The translations under genes were made by a program, and so were the position numbers. The notes beneath the pieces are model-generated. The model searched no databases. It was not told the origin of the DNA and was given only the letters and a program-made list of their open reading frames with translations. Shown here piece by piece: positions 3,540-22,827 of a DNA stretch of 34,200 nt. This stretch comes from Mustelus asterias (lineage: Eukaryota), in contig NC_135808.1 of the NCBI RefSeq assembly GCF_964213995.1, forward strand, positions 21,576,001-21,610,200, written 5' to 3'. How positions within the stretch are numbered: position 1 is the first letter of the stretch; the number at the start of each line of letters is the position of its first letter.

Positions 3540-3910
3540 CAATCCCACTACGACGCTCACCAGATTTTACAGATGCACCACAGAAAGCATCCTATCCAGA
3601 TGCATCAGAGCTCGGTATGGCTCCTGCTCTAACCAAGACCGCAAGAAATTACAGAGAGTTGTGAACAGAGTCCAGTCCATCACGCAAACCAGCCTGCCAT
3701 CCATTGACTCTGTCTACACTTCCCGCAGCAAGAAGTCTCACAACACCAGGTTGTTTATTAAGTTTATTTGGTAGCACAAGCCACAAGCTTTCGGAGTGCT
3801 CTGAAAGCAATGTACTCTTTGGACGGTATGTTTTGCATGTGTAGAAAGCAAGAGACAATACTTTTCAATGTATTCCAATACATCTGACAATAATAAATCA
3901 AATTAAATCA
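3540..3910 (+). mobile_element. Rex1/Babar LINE 3' fragment with an internal deletion at a Penelope pLTR remnant
   Basis: ORF 3508 contains LTRFYRCTTESILSRCI...QSITQTSLPSIDSVYTSR; tail tgacaataataaatcaa. Confidence 0.85.
3729..3808 (-). mobile_element. Penelope (Neptune-type) pLTR remnant
   Basis: aagaagtctcacaacaccaggtt...tttatttggtagcacaagccacaagctttcggag, as at 16545-16615. Confidence 0.8.
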
Positions 3911-5933: not shown

Positions 5934-7565
5934 GGGCAGTGCGGTTGTTCGCACTGCTGCCTCACTGCGCCACGGACCCGGGTTCAATTCCGGCCTCGGG
6001 TCACTGTCTGTGTGGAGTTTGCTCGTTCTCCCCGTGTCTGCATGAGTTTCCTCCGGGTGCTCCGGTTTCCTCCCACAGTCCAAAGATGTGCGGGTTAGGT
6101 TGATTGGCCATACTAAATTGCCCCTTAGTGTCCCGGGACACTAAGGGGCAATTTAGTAAGGGGAGGTCGTGCCTGACAAACCTGTTAGAGTTCTTTGAAG
6201 AGATAACAAATAGGTTAGACCAAGGAGAGCCAATGGATGTTATCTATCTTGACTTCCAAAAGGCCTTTGACAAGGTGCCTCACAGGAGACTGCTGAGTAA
6301 AATAAGGGCCCATGGTATTCGAGGCAAGGTACTAACATGGATTGACGATTGGCTGTCAGACAGAAGGCAGAGAGTTGGGATAAAAGGTTCTTTCTCAGAA
6401 TGGCAACCGGTGACAAGTGGTGTCCCGCAGGGTTCAGTGTTGGGGCCACAGCTGTTCTCTTTATATATTAACGATCTAGATGACGGGACTGGGAGCATTC
6501 TGGCCAAGTTTGCCGATGATACAAAGATAGGTGGAGGGGCAGGTAGTATTGAGGAGGTGGGGAGGCTGCAGAAAGATTTAGACAGTTTAGGAGAGTGGTC
6601 CAAGAAGTGGCTGATGAAATTCAACGTGGGCAAGTGCGAGGTCGTACACTTTGGAAAAAAGAATAGAGGCATGGACTATTTTCTAAACGGTGACAAAATT
6701 CATAATGCTAAAGTGCAAAGGGACTTGGGAGTCCTAGTCCAGGATTCTCTAAAGGTAAACTTGCAGGTTGAGTCCGTAATTAAGAAAGCAAATGTAATGT
6801 TGTCATTTATCTCAAGAGGCTTGGAATACAAAAGCAGGGATGTACTTCTGAGGCTTTATAAAGCACTGGTTAGGCCCCATTTGGAGTACTGTGAGCAATT
6901 TTGGGCCCCACACCTCAGGAAGGACATACTGGCACTGGAGCGGGTCCAGTGGAGATTCACACGGATGATCCCAGGAATGGTAGGCCTGGCATACGATGAA
7001 CGTCTGAGGATCGTGGGATTATATTCATTGGAGTTTAGGAGGTTGAGGGGAGATCTGATAGAAACTTACAAGATAATGAACGGCTTAGATAGGATGGACG
7101 TAGGGAAGTTGTTTCCATTAACAGGGGAGACTAGGACGCGGGGGCACAGCCTTAGAATAAAAGGGAGTCACTTTAGAACAGAGATGAGGAGAAATTTCTT
7201 CAGCCAGAGAGTGGTGGGTCTGTGGAATTCATTGCCACAGAGGGCTGTGGAGGCCGAGACGTTGAGCGTCTTCAAGACAGAAATTGATAAATTCTTGATT
7301 TCTCGAGGAATTAAGGGCTATGGGGAGAGAGCGGGTAAATGGAGTTGAAATCAACCATGATTGAATGGTGGAGTGGACTCGATGGGCCGAATGGCCTTAC
7401 TTCCGCTCCTATGTCTTATGGTCTTATGGGACGTGGAGGTTAGAAGGATTAGCGGGGTACATATGTGTGATTGTGGGGATAGGGCCTGGGGTGGGATTGT
7501 GGTCGGTGCAGACTCGATGGGCTGAATGGCCTCCTTCTGCACTGTAGGGATTCTATAATTTTATG
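5934..7565 (+). mobile_element. HE1-type SINE split by a CR1 insertion (SINE parts 5934-6139 and ~7428-7565)
   Basis: Head and core precede the CR1; the SINE resumes gggacgtggaggttagaaggattagc after the CR1 tail. Confidence 0.8.
6159..7427 (+). mobile_element. CR1 LINE, 5'-truncated, uninterrupted ORF2 RT/C-terminal frame
   Basis: KGRSCLTNL, LDFQKAFDKV, GVPQGSVLGP, FADD, TRGH, WNSLP; stop at 7348; tail cttatggtcttatgg. Confidence 0.95.
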
Positions 7566-13070: not shown

Positions 13071-13977
13071 TGAGGGGGTGCTGCGCTGTTACAGCATCAG
13101 TACAGAGGGAGTGCCGCAACAGTCAGAAGGTCAGTACTGAGGGAGTGCTGCACTGTCAGAGGGTCAGTACTGAGGGAGTGCTGCACTGTCAGAGGGTCAG
13201 TACTAAGAGTGCCGCACTGTCAGAGGGTCAGTACTGAGGGAGTGCTGCACTGTCAGAGGGTCAGTACTGAGGCGGTGCTGCAACAGTCAGAGGGTCAGTA
13301 CTGAGGGAGTGCTGCACTGTCAGAGGGTCAGTGCTGAGGGAGTGCTGCACTGTCAGAGGGTCAGTACTGAGGGAGTGCTGCACTGTCAGAGGGTCAGTAC
13401 TGAGGGAGTGCCGCACTGTCAGAGGGTCAGTGCTGAGGGAGTGCTGCACTGTCAGAGGGTCAGTACTGAGGGAGTGCTGCACTGTCAGAGGGTCAGTGCT
13501 GAGGGAGTGCTGCACTGTCAGAGGGTCAGTACTGAGGGAGTGCTGCACTGTCAGAGGGTCAGTACTGAGGGAGTGCCGCACTGTCAGAGGGTCAGTGCTG
13601 AGGGAGTGCAGCACTGTCAGAGGGTCAGTACTGAGGGAGTGCCGCACTGTCAGAGGGTCAGTACTGAGGGTGTGCTGCACTGTCAGAGGGTCAGTGCTGA
13701 GGGAGTGCTGCACTGTCAGAGGGTCAGTACTGAGGGTGTGCTGCACTGTCAGAGGGTCAGTACTGAGGGAGTGCTGCACTGTCAGAGGGTCAGTACTGAG
13801 GGAGTGCTGCACTCTCAGAGGGTCAGTACTGAGGGAGTGCTGCACTGTCAGAGGGTCAGTACTGAGGGAGTGCTGCAACAGTCAGAGGGTGAGCACTGAG
13901 AGTGCTGCACTGTCAGAGGGTCAGTGCTGAGGGAGTGCTGCACTGTCAGAGGGTCAATGCTGAGGGAGTGCTGCAGT
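13071..13977. repeat. 33-bp minisatellite, ~27 units (cagtactgagggagtgctgcactgtcagagggt)
   Basis: Direct tandem repetition; 11-aa periodic ORFs in several frames. Confidence 0.97.
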
Positions 13978-14036: not shown

Positions 14037-16250
14037 CAAAGAACAAAGAACAAAGAACAATACAGCACAGGAACAGGCCCTTCGGCCCTCCAAGCCTGCG
14101 CCGCTCATGTGCCCACTAGACCATTCTTTTGTATCCCTCTATTCCCAGTCTGTTCATGTGGCTATCTAGCTAAGTCTTAAACGATCCCAGCATGTCCGCC
14201 TCAATCACCGTGCTTGGCAGTGCATTCCAGGCCCCACCACCCTCTGTGTAAAATACGTCCCCCTGACATCTGTGTTGAACCTTGTCCCCCTCACCTTGAA
14301 CCCGTGACCCCTTGTGTTCATCACCTCTGACCTGGGAAAAAGCTTCCCACTGTTCACTCTATCTATGCCCTTCATAATTTTATACACCTCTATTAGGTCG
14401 CCCCTCATCCTTCGTCTTTGCAGGGAGAACAACCCCAGTTTACTCAATCTCTCCTCATAGCTAAGACCCTCCATACCAGGCAACATCCTGGTAAACCTTC
14501 TCTGTACTCTCTCCAAAGCCTCCACGTCCTTCTGGTAGTGCGGCGACCAGAACTGGACGCAGTATTCCAAATGTGGCCTAACCATCGTTCTATACAGCTG
14601 CAACATCATATGCCAACTTTTATATTCTATGCCCCGTCCAATAAAGGCAAGCATGCCATATGCCTTCTTCACCTGTGCTGCCACCTTTAAGGGTCTGTGG
14701 AGTTGTACACCCAGGTCCCTCTGTGTGTCTATACTCCTGATGGTTCTGCCATTTATTTTATAGCTCCCCCTTTCATTAGATCTACCGAAATGCATCACTT
14801 CGCATTTATCTGGATTAAATTCCATCTGCCATTTCTCTGCCCAATGTTCCAGCCTATCTATATCCTGCTGTATTCTCTGACAATGTTCATCACTATCCGC
14901 AACTCCAGAAATCTTCGTGTTGTCCGCAAACTTACTGATCACACCAGTTACACCTTCCTCCAAATCATTTATATATATCACAAACAGCAGAGGTCCCAGT
15001 ACAGAGCCCTGCGGAACACCACTAGTCACAGACGTCCAACCGGAAAAAGACCCCTCCACTGCTACCCTCTGTCTTCTGTGGCTAAACACAGTAACAGTTT
15101 TAACAACACCAGGTTAAAGTCCAACAGGTTTATTTGGGTGCAAATCAAATAAACCTGTTGGACTTTAACCTGATGTTGTTAAAACTGTTACTGCGTTTAC
15201 CCCAACGCCGACAACTCCACATGATGACTTCTATGGCTAAGCCAGTTCTCCACCCATCGAGCTTGCTCACCTTTTATCCCGTGAGATTTAACCTTTTGCA
15301 CCAGCCTGCCATGAGGGACCTTGTCAAACGCTTTACTAAAATCCATCTCAATGACATCCACGGCCCTTCCCTCATCAATCGTTTTTGTCACCTCCTCAAA
15401 AAGCTCAACCAAATTTGTGAGGCATGACCTGCCTTGTACAAAACCATGCTGTCGATCGCGAATGAGATTATTCAGTTCTAAATGCACATATATCCTTTCT
15501 CTAAGAATCTTCTCCAACAACTTCCCTACCATGGACGTCAAGCTCACAGGCCTATAATTACCCGGGTTATCCTTGCTACCCTTCTTAAATAACGGGACCA
15601 CATTTGCTATCCTCCAATCCTCTGGGACCTCACCTGTGTCCAGTGAAGAGACAAAGATTTCTGTTAGAGGCCCAGCAATTGCATCTCTCGCCTCCCTGAG
15701 GAGTCTAGGACAGATGCCATCTGGCCCTGGGGATTTGTCTGTCTTAATGTTTCCTAAAAAACCTAACACTTCCTCCCTTGTAATTGAGATTTGTTCTAAC
15801 GGGTCAACACATCTCTCTGAGACAATACCAGTCAACATGTCCCTCTCCTTTGTGAATACTGATGCAAAGTATTCGTTTAGGATCTCACCTACTTCCTTTG
15901 GTTCTCAGCATAATTCCCCTCCTTCGTCCCTGAGAGGTCCGATTTTTTCCCGAACAACCCTCTTGTTCCTAACGTATGTATAAAATGCCTTAGGATTCTC
16001 CTTAATCCTGTCTGTCAAGGACATTTCATGACCCCTTTTTGCCCTTCTAACTCCCTGTTTGAGTTCTTTTCTACTTTCTCTGTATTCCTCCAGTGCTCCA
16101 TCTGTTTTTAGCTGCCTGGACCTCATGTGTGCCTCTTTTTTCTTTTTGATTAGACCCACAATTTCACTGGTTATCCACGGCTCTCGAATCCTACCTTTCC
16201 TGTCCTTCCTCTTTACAGGCACATGCCTGTCCTGCAGTCCTATCAACTGC
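14037..16250 (-). mobile_element. CR1 LINE, 5'-truncated and decayed, interrupted by a mini-Penelope insertion
   Basis: ORFs with KSPGPDGI, NYRPVSLTS, GRSCLTNL, DFSKAFDKV, GVPQGSVLGP, TRGH; (caaagaa)n tail at 14037-14060. Confidence 0.95.
15086..15227. mobile_element. Palindromic mini-Penelope (two inverted pLTR ends)
   Basis: Inverted arms of pLTR sequence; TSD cttct(g/a)tggctaa at 15073-15085 and 15228-15240. Confidence 0.88.
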
Positions 16251-16504
16251 TCCTTGGTGTCGCAGAGTCAGAGGGCCAGTTCTGGGAGCAACACATTGTT
16301 GAAGGAAGAACACTGAAGGAGTGAAATAGTTTTGAAGAGACAGTTGTGAGGAGTTGTTCCACTGTCAGATTTGAGATAGATAATCTTTCTATGACACATT
16401 GAAGTGCGACTCCACCTGCCCTTTCAGGTGGATTGAAAGGATCCCATGTCTCTGTTGGAATAGAAGCAGAGGGTTCACCTGATGTCCTGGCCAACATTTA
16501 TCCA

Positions 16505-18243
16505 TGATGTGGAGATGGTGGCGTTGGACTGGGGTAAACACAGTAAGAAGTTTCACAACACCAGGTTAAAGTCCAACAGATTTATTTGGTAGCACAAGCC
16601 ACAAGCTTTTGGAGCGCTGCTCCTTCGTCAGGTGAGTGGGAGTTCTGTTCACAAACAGGGCATATAAAGACACAAACTCAATTTACAAAGTAATGGTTGG
16701 AATGTGAGTCTTTATAGGTAATCAAGTCTTAAAGGTACAGACAATGTGAGTGGAGAGAGGGTTTAGCACAGGTTAAAGAGATGTGTATTGTCTCCAGCCA
16801 GGACAGTTCGTGAGATTTTGCAAGCCAATGAAAGTCGTGGGGGTTACAGATAGTGTGGCATGAACCCAAGATCCCAGTTGAGGCCGTCCTCATGTGTGCA
16901 GAACTTGGCTGTCAGTTTCTGCTCAGGTGACTCTGCGTTGTCGTGTGTCGTGAAGGCCGCCTTGGAGAACGCTTACCTGAAGAGCTGAAGTGTTCCCCAA
17001 CAGGAAGAGAACACTGTTGCCTGGTGATTGTCGAGTGGTGTTCATTCATCCGTTGTCATAGCGAATGCATGGTCTCCCCAATGTACCATGCTTCGGGATG
17101 TCCTTTCCTGCAGCGTATCAGTTCAACAATGTTGGCTGAGTTGCAAGTGTATGTACCGTGTACCTGGTGGATGGTGTTCTCACGTGAAATGATGGCATCC
17201 ATGTCGATGATCCAGCACGTCTTGCAGAGGTTGCTGTGGTAGGGTTGTGAGGTGCCGTGGTCACTGTTCTCCTGAAGGCTGGGTAGCTTGCTGCGGACAA
17301 TGGTCTGTTTGAGGTTGTGGGGTTGTTTGAAGGCAAGAAGTGGGAGTGTGGGGTTGGCCTTGGCAAGATGTTCGTCTTCATCGATGACATGTTGAATATC
17401 TCACCAAGGTCATCCCCACACTCCCACTTCTTGCCTTCAAACAACCCCACAACCTCAAGCAGATCATTGTCCGCAGCAAACTACCCAGCCTTCAGGAGAA
17501 CAGTGACCATGGCACCACACAACCCTGCCATAGCAACCTCTGCAAGACATGCCGGATCATCGACACGGATGCCATCATCTTACGTGAGAACACCATCCAC
17601 CAGGTACACGGTACATACACTTGCAACTCAGCCAATGTTGTCTACCTGATACGCTGCAGGAAAGGATGTCCCGAGGCATGGTACATTGGGGAGACCATGC
17701 ATTTGCTACGATAATGGATGAATGAACACCGCTCGACAATCACCAGGCAGGAGTGTCCTCTTCCTGTTGGGGAACACTTCAGCAGTCACGGGCATTCAAC
17801 CTCTGATCTTCAGGTAAGCGTTCTCCAAGGCGGCCTTCACGACACACAACGCAGAATCGTTGAGCAGAAACTGATAGCCAAGTTCCGCACACCTGAGGAC
17901 GGCCTCAACCGGGATCTTGGGTTCATGTCACACTATTTGTAACCCCCACGACTTGCCTGGGCTTGCAAAATCTCACTAACTGTCCTGGCTGGAGACAATA
18001 CGCACCTCTTTAACCTGTGCTTAACCCTCTCTCCACTCACATTGTCTGTACCTTTAAGACTTGATTAGTTGTAAAGACTCGCATTCCAACCATTATTTTG
18101 TAAATTGAGTTTGTATCTATATATGCCCTGTTTGTGAACACAACTCCCACTCACCTGAAGAAAGGGCAGCGCTCTGAAAGATTGTGGCTTGTGCTACCAA
18201 ATAAACCTGTTGGACTTTAACTTGATGTTGTGAGACTCCTTAC
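16505..18243. mobile_element. Penelope-like (Neptune-type) element as a 1.7-kb inverted repeat; each arm is GIY-YIG domain plus pLTR
   Basis: Right arm reads NVVYLIRCRKGCPEAWYIGET (17634-17696) with decay; left arm is its reverse complement; centre ~17385; approximate TSD caacattt(a/g)tcc. Confidence 0.93.
18152..18186 (+). ncRNA. Minimal type I hammerhead ribozyme motif in pLTR
   Basis: CAC-CUGAAGA-A-AGGGC agc GCUCU-GAAA-GA-UU-GUG; core intact, stem III palindrome mutated. Confidence 0.6.
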
Positions 18244-19614: not shown

Positions 19615-20590
19615 AGCAGCCGTAGCTCAGGCAGGAACACACCCGCCTCTGAGTCAGAAAGTCGTGGGTTCAAATCCCACTCAAGTGACTTGAGCACCAG
19701 ATCTAGGCTGACATTCCAGTGCTGAGGGAGTGCTGCACTGTTAGAGGGTCAGTACTGAGGGAATGGTGCACTGTTAGAGGGTCAGTGCTGAGGGAGTGCT
19801 GCACTGTCAGAGGGTCAGTACTGAGGGAGTGCTGCACCCTCGGAGGGTCAGTATGAGCGAGTGCCACACTGTCAGAGGGTCAGTACTGAGGGAGTGCTGC
19901 ACTGTCAGAGGGTCAGTACTGAGGGAATGCTGCACTGTCAGAGGGTCAGTGCTGAGGGAGTGCTGCACTGTCTGAGGGTCAGTACTGAGGGAGTGCTGCA
20001 CTGTCAGAGGGTCAGTACTGAGGGAGTGCCGCACTGTCAGAGGGTCAGTGCTGAGGGAGTGCTGCACTGTCAGAGGATCAGTACTGAGCGAGTGCCACAC
20101 TGTCAGAGGGTCAGTACTGAGGGAGTGCTGCACTGTCAGAGGGTCAGTACTGAGGGAATGCTGCACTGTCAGAGGGTCAGTGCTGAGGGAGTGCTGCACT
20201 GTCAGAGGGTCAGTACTGAGGGAGTGCCGCACTGTCAGAGGGTCAGTGCTGAGGGAGTGCTACACTGTCAGAGGATCAGTACTGAGAGAGTGCTGCACTG
20301 TCAGAGGGTCAGTGCTGAGGGAGTGCCGCACTGTCAGAGGGTCAGTGCTGAGGGAGTGCTGCACTGTCAGAGGGTCAGTGCTGAGGGAGTGCCGCACTGT
20401 CTGAGGGTCAGTGCTGAGGGAGTGCTGCACTCTAATCGTGTTTTACTTCAGTCTTTATTTTGAAACTATTTCTTGTCTGCTGTCTCAGATATAAACGATC
20501 CCATGGCAGTATTTCAACAAACAACCAAGGTTTTCTCCCTGATCTCCTGGTCCATATTTATCCCTCAACCAATCACATTTAAACAGATAA
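19615..20590 (+). mobile_element. SacSINE1-like DeuSINE hosting the second 33-bp array
   Basis: tRNA-like head (tagctcag...gggttcaaatcccactc) upstream of the array; gatcccatggca...cctggtccatatttatccctcaacc downstream. Confidence 0.7.
19717..20431. repeat. 33-bp minisatellite, ~21-22 units
   Basis: Same unit as 13071-13977. Confidence 0.97.
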
Positions 20591-20644
20591 AACAATCAGG
20601 AATCATGCGGTTTCATTATTTATGACTGCACTCTCTCACCTGCA

Positions 20645-22286
20645 CAGTAAGTAGTCTCACAACACCAACTTAAAGTCCAACAGGTTTATTTGGTCGCACC
20701 AGCTTTCGGAGCGCTTGCTGCTCCTTCATCAGGTGAGTGAGGCGTTGTGTTCACAAACAGGGCATATGCAGACACAAACTCAATTTACAAGATAATGGTT
20801 GGAATGCGAGTCTTAACAGGTAATCAAGTCTTAAAGTTACAGACAATGTGAGTGGAGAGAGGGTTAAGCACAGGTTAAAGAGATATGTATTGTCTCCAGC
20901 CAGGACAGTTAGTGAGATTTTGCAAACCCAGGCAAGCCGTGGGGGTTACAGATAGTGTGACATGAACCCAAGATCCCGGTTGAGGCCGTCCTCAGGTGTG
21001 CGGAACTTGGCTATCAGTTTCTTCTCAGTGATTCTGCGTTGTTGTGTGTTGTGAAGGCCGTCTTTAGAACGGTTACCCGAAGATCAGAGGCTGAGGCTCT
21101 TGACTGCTCAAGTGTTCCCCGACTGGAAGAGAACACTCCTGCCTGGTGATTGTCGAGTGGTGTTCATTCATCGGTTGTCGTAGCGTCTGCATAGTTTCCC
21201 CAATGTACCATGCCTCGGGACATCCTTTCCTGCAGCGTATCAGGCAGACAACGTTGGCTGAGCCACAGAGTATGTACCGTGTACCTGGTGGATGGTGTTC
21301 TCATGTGAGGTGATGGCATCGGTGTCAATGATCCAGCACGTCTTGCAGAGGTTGCTGTGGCAGGGTTGTGTGGTGTTGTAGTTACTGTTCTCCTGGAGGC
21401 TGGGTAGTTTGCTGCGGACAATGGTCTGTTTGAGGTTGTGCGGTTGTTTGAAGGCAAGAAGTGGGGATGGCCTTGGCGAGATGTTCGGCTTCATCGATGA
21501 CATGTTGAATGCTCCGGAGAAGATGTCGTAGCTTATCCACTCCGGGGAAGCACTGGACGACGAGAGGTTCTCTGTCCGCCGTGTCACCGTTTGTCTTCTG
21601 AGGAGGTCGGTGTGGTTTTTCACTGTGGCGCGTCGGAACTGTCGATCAATGAGTTGAGCGCCATATCCTGTTCTTATGAGGGCATCTTTCAGCGTCTGTA
21701 GGTGTCTGTTGCAATCCTCCTCATCCAAGAAGATCCTGTGTATACGGAGGGCTTGTCTGTAGGGGATGGCTTCTTTAACATGTTCAGGGTGGAAGCTGGA
21801 GAAGTGGAGCATCGTGAGGTTATCCGTGGGCTTGCGGTACAGTGAGGTGCTGAGGTGATTGTCCTTGATGGAGATGTGTGTGTCCAAGAATGCAGCCAAT
21901 TCTGGAGAGTAGCCCATGGTGAGTCTGATGGTGGAACTTGTTGATGTCACCATATAGTTGTTTCAGAGATTGTTCACCGTGAGTCCAAAGGAAGAAAATG
22001 TCATCGATGTATCTAGTGTATAGCATCGGTTGAAGGTCCTGTGCGGTGAAGGAGTCTTGTTCAAACCTGTGCATGAAGATGTTGGCATATTGAGGTCCAA
22101 ATTTGGTCCCCATGGCTGTTCCATGGATGAAGAACTGATTGTTGAAGGTGAAGACATTGTGGTCCACCTGATGAAGGAGCAGCGCTCCGAAAGCTCGGCA
22201 ACCAAATAAACCTGTTGGACTTTAACCTGGTGTTGTGAGACTACTTACTGTGCTTACCCCAGTCCAATGCCGGCATCTCCACATCA
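20645..22286 (-). mobile_element. Penelope-like (Neptune-type) element: truncated RT, GIY-YIG and pLTR, plus an inverted partial pLTR (22165-22286)
   Basis: HGTAMGTKFGPQYANIFM, RYIDDIF, FLDTHI, LYRKPTD, SSFHP, IPY.QALRIHRI; frameshifted; TSD tctcacc(t/a)gca at 20634-20644 and 22287-22297. Confidence 0.95.
22165..22199 (+). ncRNA. Minimal hammerhead ribozyme motif in the inverted pLTR
   Basis: CAC-CUGAUGA-A-GGAGC agc GCUCC-GAAA-GC-UC; 3' strand of stem I damaged. Confidence 0.65.
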
Positions 22287-22580
22287 TCTCACCAGCATGG
22301 CTGACACTAAACTGCCCTCTGAAATGACTGAATTAGCCCCTGCGACATCTTTACATTCTGTCTTAAACTGGAGCGTTGTTTTGCTGAATCAATTTGTAGA
22401 AATTAGACTGGAACATTTCAATGCTTTCTTGTGGGATCTTGCTGTGCACAGATCAGCTCCTAACTCTAGGGCCTGTCATGTAGTAGGAGCTCACCATCAG
22501 TCAGCTCCTGCTGAGAAATCGTAATGCCAAGATTATTTTAATCAGGTTATGTTAATCTAAATCCTGTGAAACAGGATTTA

Positions 22581-22827
22581 TGATGTGGAGATGCCGGCGT
22601 TGGACTGGGGTGAACACAGTAAGAAGTCTCACAACACCAGGTTAAAGTCCAACAGGTTTATTTGGTAGCAAAAGCCACTAGCTTTCGGAGTGCTGCTCCT
22701 TCATCAGGTGAGTGGGAGTTCTGTTCACAAACGGGGCATATAAAGACACAAACTCAATTTACAAAATAATTTGGTTGGAATGCGAGTCTTTACAGGTAAT
22801 CAAGTCTCAAAGGTACAGACAATGTGT
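22581..22827 (-). mobile_element. Solo Penelope pLTR 3' fragment
   Basis: Matches 16505-16748; TSD acaggattta at 22571-22580 and 22828-22837. Confidence 0.92.
22676..22710 (-). ncRNA. Minimal type I hammerhead ribozyme motif (best-preserved copy)
   Basis: CAC-CUGAUGA-A-GGAG cagca CUCC-GAAA-GC-UA|GUG; stem I CAC/GUG; palindromic AGCU in place of stem III. Confidence 0.75.

Follow-up and report, generated by a model that had tools for sequence, protein, structure and literature searches.

The minus strand of the window, by which we mean the whole 34,200-nt stretch of Mustelus asterias DNA analysed here, carries at 22676-22710 a complete minimal type I hammerhead without loop 3, embedded in a solo, truncated pLTR of a Neptune-type Penelope-like element (PLE); in the source elements of this family, pairs of such motifs probably cut their RNA in the cell. 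This reading is supported by the anatomy of the motif, by a fixed core with covarying stems, by the presence of two sense motifs in long elements, by an excess of insertions that begin at the predicted cut, and by long insertions that read through it.

Read from 22710 to 22676, the motif is CAC CUGAUGA A GGAG CAGCA CUCC GAAA GC U A^GUG, the caret marking the predicted cut, which falls between 22679 and 22678 on the minus strand, as the first-pass annotation of the window had correctly placed it. The intact hammerhead proposed in that annotation is borne out by direct reading and by a descriptor consisting of a 3-bp stem I, both core boxes, a 4-bp stem II and UH, which has two matches in the window, this motif and one other copy, and none in 200 shuffles. 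Hammerheads were absent among the 18 matches at E <= 1 to the curated covariance models of Rfam; the miRNA matches obtained from the same database were discarded as fold-back artefacts. The monomer fold of the motif is unremarkable (z -0.94), as expected since it is unable to close stem III. The fifth stem II pair, kept in 306 of 323 family copies, has been lost here at a CpG (22691), and this copy, lying in a dead fragment, is likely inert. The features of the motif, of the insertion that contains it and of the related insertions in the window are collected in Table 1.

Table 1. Hammerhead motifs and PLE-derived insertions in the window
Feature	Position	Strand	Basis or remark
Minimal type I hammerhead	22676..22710	-	direct reading; descriptor and shuffles
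Stem I	22708-22710 paired with 22676-22678	-	sequence reading
CUGAUGA box	22701-22707	-	sequence reading
Extra A	22700	-	sequence reading
Stem II	22696-22699 paired with 22687-22690	-	sequence reading
GAAA	22683-22686	-	sequence reading
Palindrome AGCU	22680-22683	-	sequence reading
A17	22679	-	sequence reading
Solo 5'-truncated pLTR with 3' tail and motif, 247 bp, middle-aged 14-nt-linker subfamily	22580..22826	-	
Left target-site duplication ACAGGATTTA	22571..22580	+	
Right target-site duplication	22828..22837	+	repeated again at 22839-22848
Tail between the family's two 3'-end classes	22580..22618	-	3' ends of 201 copies
AAUAAA	22657..22662	-	16 nt downstream of the predicted cut, upstream of both 3'-end classes
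Element B: truncated RT-thumb-endonuclease-pLTR with inverted arm, one target duplication	20643..22287	-	
Element B, main part	20643-22164	-	
Element B, inverted tail-bearing arm	22165-22287	+	
Motif copy with G17 and enlarged loop II, predicted inactive	20697..20735	-	
Motif copy without the 3' strand of stem I, predicted inactive	22165..22199	+	ends GCUC GGC
Element A: two truncated 3' ends folded back head to head, with one target duplication	16504..18243		
Motif copy with G12A, its linker in the exact 7-nt duplication form	16600..16634	-	
Motif copy with broken palindrome (GAAAGAU)	18152..18186	+	
Short fold-back stub, old short-linker (C17) subfamily, 10-bp target duplication	29110..29303		
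Fold-back stub without motif	15085..15226		
Truncated pLTR end with 3' half of motif	3726..3800	-	
Truncated pLTR end with 3' half of motif, CAU/AUG subfamily	33090..33163	-	

On its sequence features the motif would be a further min-HHR, a class known since 2014, when Cervera and de la Pena defined minimal hammerheads without helix III/loop 3 in PLE pLTRs, including those of fish Neptune elements (PMC4209133). As the text of that paper describes it, the class has in common with the present family the type I form, the lack of loop 3, the palindromic 15.2-16.2, the extra base between 9 and 10.1, the G10.1-C11.1 pair and a short stem I, as well as the pLTR location, many sequence families per genome and mostly single dispersed copies; in the present family, stem I measures 3-4 bp and stem II 5-6 bp. 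The hosts named in the text are fishes, coelacanth, Xenopus and reptiles, without sharks, and no evidence of cleavage in vivo is given. The small PLE hammerhead variants of Lunse et al., which cleave as dimers according to PMC6765202, likewise have a palindromic, extremely short stem III. The earlier assignment to the PLE minimal hammerheads thus holds for every sequence feature that could be tested, but its description as "ultra-minimal", taken to mean a form beyond those known, does not, as the 2014 descriptor covers exactly this form. Because the class has been known since then and the copy is a dead fragment, the finding at 22676 is in itself an ordinary one.

Self-comparison and target duplications allowed the copies in the window to be sorted into separate insertions. 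The inverted pLTR pairs reported by the first pass are real for 22165 with 20697 and for 16600 with 18152, but the motif at 22676 is unpaired and has its own target duplication; since they belong to separate insertions, 22165 and 22676 face each other by accident and form no pair. Among the five full-length motifs that had been listed, only 22676 is complete: 16600-16634 (G12A) and 20697-20735 (G17) are as they had been described, but 22165-22199 lacks the 3' strand of stem I and 18152-18186 has lost the palindrome. The AGGGC/GCUCU stem of the latter had been taken for a maintained pairing; an A-U pair at 10.1/11.1 occurs in one of 323 copies, however, so that this stem II represents decay and no covariation. 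The half motifs near 3785, 29165-29216 and 33150 are present, both arms of the stub at 29110-29303 ending inside the motif, and the motif-less stub at 15085-15226 is an addition to the earlier list. The window also contains long arrays of short tandem repeats that are open in several frames (13207-13930, 19807-20463 and 31682-32368), and truncated RT frames, one of 414 codons (6104-7348, 14205-16267 and 24696-25841), which we take to be CR1-like. Within the solo pLTR, the AAUAAA is a possible poly(A) signal, and a TATA-like word lies about 30 nt upstream of an initiator-like CCACTCA adjoining stem I (22712-22744, minus strand).

The host family is abundant in the genome (G000), whose repeats seem to be those of a shark; a 47-nt stretch of the pLTR has 47,139 exact matches there and its reversed control has none. 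Sixty 10-kb stretches chosen by position yielded 56 BLAST matches to the downstream anchor, and the core is perfect in 22 of the 45 anchor matches that passed a stricter parse. A search with the first 70 codons returned at least 150 places; the 60 longest open frames among the matches listed were analysed as long elements and the 30 best-scoring loci were examined separately, the other 60 listed places being left out. In many of the 60 long elements, a unit of 3,005-3,097 bp contains a frame of 892-893 codons without interruption, and 32 units are at least 99.5% identical to one intact copy. The protein, 893 aa from a single open reading frame, matches RVT_1 (E 6e-10) and contains the motifs DKG (297), YIDD (533) and VY..YIG (792), together with a CX4CXXC linker (CHSNLCKTC at 754) between RT and EN; GIY-YIG is absent from its Pfam matches, the C-terminal GIY-YIG-type domain being called by motif, and no solved structure matching the protein was found. 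Partial tandems, an inverted 5' copy and a one-sided tail are all present in the family, which, by the motif definitions given in PMC8557442 and PMC3846280, would be a Neptune-type (Neptune/Nematis) EN+ PLE. As these papers describe them, such EN+ PLEs likewise have partial tandems, an inverted 5' copy, a one-sided tail of 30-40 bp, a TATA/Inr-like pair in the pLTR and a CX2-5CxxC linker between RT and GIY-YIG; the function of their hammerheads is still unclear according to PMC8557442.

A very young branch of the family (L171-L230; for example L192:1501-4179, plus strand) has dozens of intact 892-893-codon frames that are 99.5-100% identical, and is probably still active. At one of its loci, L188, the main unit has clustered A-to-G changes that recur in the inverted arm, as would be seen if editing of the template RNA had preceded insertion. 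Elsewhere in the genome, about 45 near-identical copies of the RT region, spaced at roughly 50-110 kb in both orientations, occupy what looks like a large amplified segment (G000:C10:50.5-54.9 Mb). Contigs from sequencing runs, probably of RNA, of four other organisms contain the family as well, with motif variation at the same free positions, and in one of these organisms a U4C core variant, at the letter corresponding to 22706, makes up about 11% of contig depth.

To follow the motif through the family, 416 copies were picked independently of their likeness to it, and 323 of these contain the whole motif; the table of copies merged identical 150-nt windows, so that young copies are undercounted in the motif, fold and subfamily counts and in the sample of 201 copy ends described below. 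The CUGANGA box and the GAAA-NN-UH box stand in type I order, and each core letter departs from the consensus in 0-7 of the 323 copies, except for G12, a CpG site, which does so in 15. Position 7 varies among A, C and U; 238 copies have U at position 17, 64 have A and 19 have C, and loop II takes more than 10 forms. The pair 2.1/1.1 is C-G in 240 copies and U-A in 69, the pair 10.1/11.1 is G-C in 299 and G-U in 19, and the extra base between 9 and 10.1 is A in 319. The majority sequence of every subfamily has AGCU as its palindromic 15.1-16.1 segment, without loop 3.

Across 27 haplotypes (24 that were recurrent or chosen, together with rarer forms and the 22676 copy), four of nine pairs change on both sides, and paired-change cells number 14 compared with 4.0 in shuffles, a value reached by none of 500; every slid control was lower. 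A conserved core and covariation of stem II were to be expected on the earlier reading, and both are found in the family: the core is fixed, and across subfamilies there is covariation in stem II as well as in stem I, amounting to few events in the tree and, for the change in stem I, to one clade. All core letters are common to the 8-9 subfamily majorities, and 66 of 230 upstream non-coding columns vary. The 47 nt downstream of the motif are likewise conserved (5 of 47 variable), and the conservation of the core could in part reflect other constraints.

The subfamilies differ mainly around the cut, and their order was inferred from a midpoint-rooted tree. The short-linker C17 form has the highest divergence from its own majority (6.6%) and is nearest to the subfamily of 22676 (4-5%). 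The 14-nt linker equals the short linker plus a 7-nt duplication across the cut; the second copy of this duplication was changed in later branches, and the youngest branch gained 2 nt and has U17. Tandem duplications of 7 nt centred on the cut site are visible in the window at 22665-22682 and 16586-16606, and the duplication that founded the long-linker lineages could be the scar of a joining at the cut.

The topology of the motif supports the earlier proposal that AGCU cannot close in a monomer and that the active fold therefore needs two copies. It had further been held that a transcript carries only one sense copy, which is true of the truncated fold-backs in the window but not of the family, as 37 of the 60 long elements (recounted without merging) have two intact sense motifs 2,994-3,358 bp apart, the second lying in the upstream partial tandem; an intact upstream motif is also found in 11 of the 30 best-scoring loci. 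In the computed swapped dimer, the AGCU segments of the two copies pair with each other, and the strands of each stem I come from different copies. Whether carried by one transcript or by two RNAs, a pair of motifs would swap strands in this way, the paired AGCU segments would make a 4-bp stem III, and each core would cut the other after position 17. The dimer fold has -14 to -21 kcal/mol for intact forms and is never better than two folded monomers, the gap being widest in the youngest branch (-16 vs -32), although nearest-neighbour energies omit the tertiary core. This branch combines U17, a poor cleavage base, with a stem I of 3 bp and with a hairpin in which the predicted cut site is buried. 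A conserved "off" hairpin on GAAAGC was also considered but is not supported, its pairing probability being 0-0.5 and the hairpin not being common to the subfamilies. The weak computed dimer fits the weak cleavage of dimers and the inactivity of monomers described in PMC4209133, as well as the protein-assisted cleavage described for PAc, the Anolis Poseidon element of Frangieh et al. 2024 (PMC11167929); too weak alone, the fold would likely need the protein of the element, as reported for PAc.

It is very improbable that the 7-nt duplication instead lets a monomer close stem III and cut at the second site. GCU(H)GUG does occur twice in the long-linker subfamilies, and in the exact form A15.1-G-C is able to pair with the second GCU, but the exact duplication is rare (about 10 of 323 copies), its second copy has decayed in all later branches, and stem I covaries with the first register; on these grounds monomer activity was rejected as a general mechanism.

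Cleavage of a motif pair would yield a 3' product whose free 5' end precedes the internal priming sites by 62-99 nt, and reverse transcription primed at these sites would run off at the cut to give short stubs. The 3' ends of 201 copies form two classes about 37 nt apart, both downstream of the cut and of the AAUAAA, and by likeness to PAc (PMC11167929) these two classes, which bound the tail, would correspond to the two start sites of reverse transcription. Genome-wide, 1,676 insertions of the youngest branch begin at the predicted cut, against 221 at a control position 3 nt upstream and 522 at one 4 nt downstream, the latter drawn from a larger pool of two branches; these counts require the two preceding bases to differ from the family, and the controls comprise these two positions only. 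Corrected for letter frequencies, there are about 3,250 starts at the cut versus 390 and 930, ratios of 8.2 and 3.5. All 12 of the first-listed cut-start loci proved to be true truncations, bordered by foreign DNA or by an inverted arm; most of them are small fold-backs, and the junction often contains a few additional bases.

A second pattern, starts at GUGG, has 867 matches, and all 16 that were inspected are true truncations. This register coincides with the cut for the 14-nt-linker subfamilies and lies 2 nt past it for the youngest, so the branches are mixed: 10 of the 16 have the young-type anchor, and two belong to the subfamily of 22676 itself. The 5' ends of the 201 copies, short and long, form a loose cluster near the cut; in a sample of 105 copies, none begins exactly at the young-branch cut and five begin 2 nt downstream. 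Further 5' ends gather 33-45 nt upstream of the cut; this second cluster, inflated by subfamily mismatch, may mark a transcription start, and since many short copies begin there, RNA may start at the motif. The steep upstream edge and the downstream shoulder of the distribution match what would be expected of run-off at an RNA 5' end, and the excess at the cut, as judged from genomic copies, is likely a fossil record of RNA self-cutting in living cells. A literature search, with figures and some supplements outside its reach, found no report of such a footprint of starts at the cut position.

Two other origins of the excess were weighed. It could mark a 5' end of another kind, for example one where transcription begins or a nuclease acts, in a family whose motif no longer cuts. 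The young-branch site is a U followed by a G, and such a pyrimidine-purine step is typical of Pol II starts. The energetic disfavour of the active fold points the same way, as does the success with which PLEs without hammerheads proliferate, according to PMC8557442. This origin is nevertheless unlikely: the TATA-like box (our own motif assignment), 66 nt upstream of the cut, indicates a start near -37, there is no clear cap-derived G, as a G precedes the start in about 37 of 100 matches listed (counted by eye) with 30% expected, and a core and pairings that were retained while the flanks diverged by 5-18% speak against an idle motif. We consider it less probable again that fold-back junctions, or a reverse transcriptase that stalls at a hairpin, created the excess as an artefact. 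Fold-backs do prevail among the inspected cases, the region is rich in short self-complementary words and 5' ends are dense over the whole motif, but the start is fixed while the partner arm ends anywhere, two of the 12 loci have no inverted arm adjoining the start, and stalling at stem II would be expected to put ends about 8 nt upstream of the cut.

The arrangement resembles that of PAc, as described in PMC11167929, in that the motif lies upstream of two internal priming sites bounding the tail, loci are tandem and long insertions come from uncut RNA. Here the open reading frame begins where the tail ends, 99 nt beyond the cut, whereas that of PAc starts inside stem II, and the present protein, unlike that of PAc, has the Neptune-type Cys linker. 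According to the same account, cleavage was dispensable for PAc in vitro and no RNA reads ending at the PAc cut were found, whereas here genomic copies start at the cut in excess.

Full-length insertions starting at the cut, as in R2, were looked for and rejected, since none of the 60 long elements begins there. Forty-five of the 60 extend upstream of the cut, two of them by only 3 nt. Reverse transcription of such long insertions ran through the site, on templates that were therefore either uncut at that motif or re-joined; the data fit both. The upstream partial copies reach at least 1.5 kb and join the main unit without scars. In 40 elements, 12 private variants (those seen in no other main unit among the 60) are common to the upstream copy and its own main unit, as are 191 minor variants, against 24 polymorphic sites that are discordant and 76 private variants that are not shared; the sharing indicates that the element's own lineage is the source from which the upstream copy is renewed again and again. 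An origin of the inverted arms from two different RNAs was mostly rejected on similar grounds, as the arms share 22 private and 199 minor variants with the main unit, with 22 discordant polymorphic sites (36 elements). In three loci (L191, L207 and L224) the upstream and downstream pLTRs differ in loop II subfamily alleles and share private variants elsewhere, a pattern suggestive of a template switch from one RNA to another.

The last step of the preferred explanation, cutting by motif pairs, can be put in a sharper and compatible form, in which cutting and joining would be the main route: both motifs would cut, ligation would close the 3.0-3.1 kb unit into a circle in which one motif stays idle, and reverse transcription, primed internally and running round this circle, would produce ordinary truncated copies and partial tandems, the unligated units giving the stubs. 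A unit cut at both motifs retains priming sites only near its 5' end, so that it would yield stubs if linear and long copies only if closed; the scarless upstream copies that share variants with their own main unit agree with this, and circles were proposed in 2014 (PMC4209133). The same pattern could, however, arise from pLTR strand transfer, from read-through of homogeneous tandems or from gene conversion. The three chimeric elements, as well as L198 of the youngest set, in which one inherited variant is found in the main unit only, do not favour circles, and Naiad PLEs form the same tandems without canonical hammerheads (PMC8557442), which argues that the motif is dispensable. We therefore regard cutting and joining as the main route only as a tentative proposal.

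Type I hammerheads are also found in non-LTR retrozymes, for which a PLE origin has been proposed and which are described as having a cut-and-circularise cycle, with one chondrichthyan genome sampled (PMC7229834; bioRxiv 10.64898/2026.07.22.740005). Unlike these, which form tandem arrays of short non-coding units with a hammerhead in each, the motif at 22676 lies in the dispersed solo pLTR end of a coding element, with a target duplication and no tandem array. A complete ribozyme cycle in the present family, in which paired hammerheads excise the 3.0-3.1 kb unit, linear units leave approximately 3,000 stubs with their start at the cut and circles are the normal template, is conceivable but doubtful on present evidence; if true, it would explain the internal priming, the geometry of the tail and the self-renewing partial tandems, and the hammerhead would be part of PLE transposition and no passenger.

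The class of motif has already been described, and the new part is the footprint of insertions that start at the cut. Because more than 1,600 insertions mark the cut position, it offers an exact target for end-mapping and circle assays, and the branch so marked consists of copies that are 99.5-100% identical and have intact reading frames. The family thereby provides a handle on whether PLE hammerheads cut in cells, and what for.
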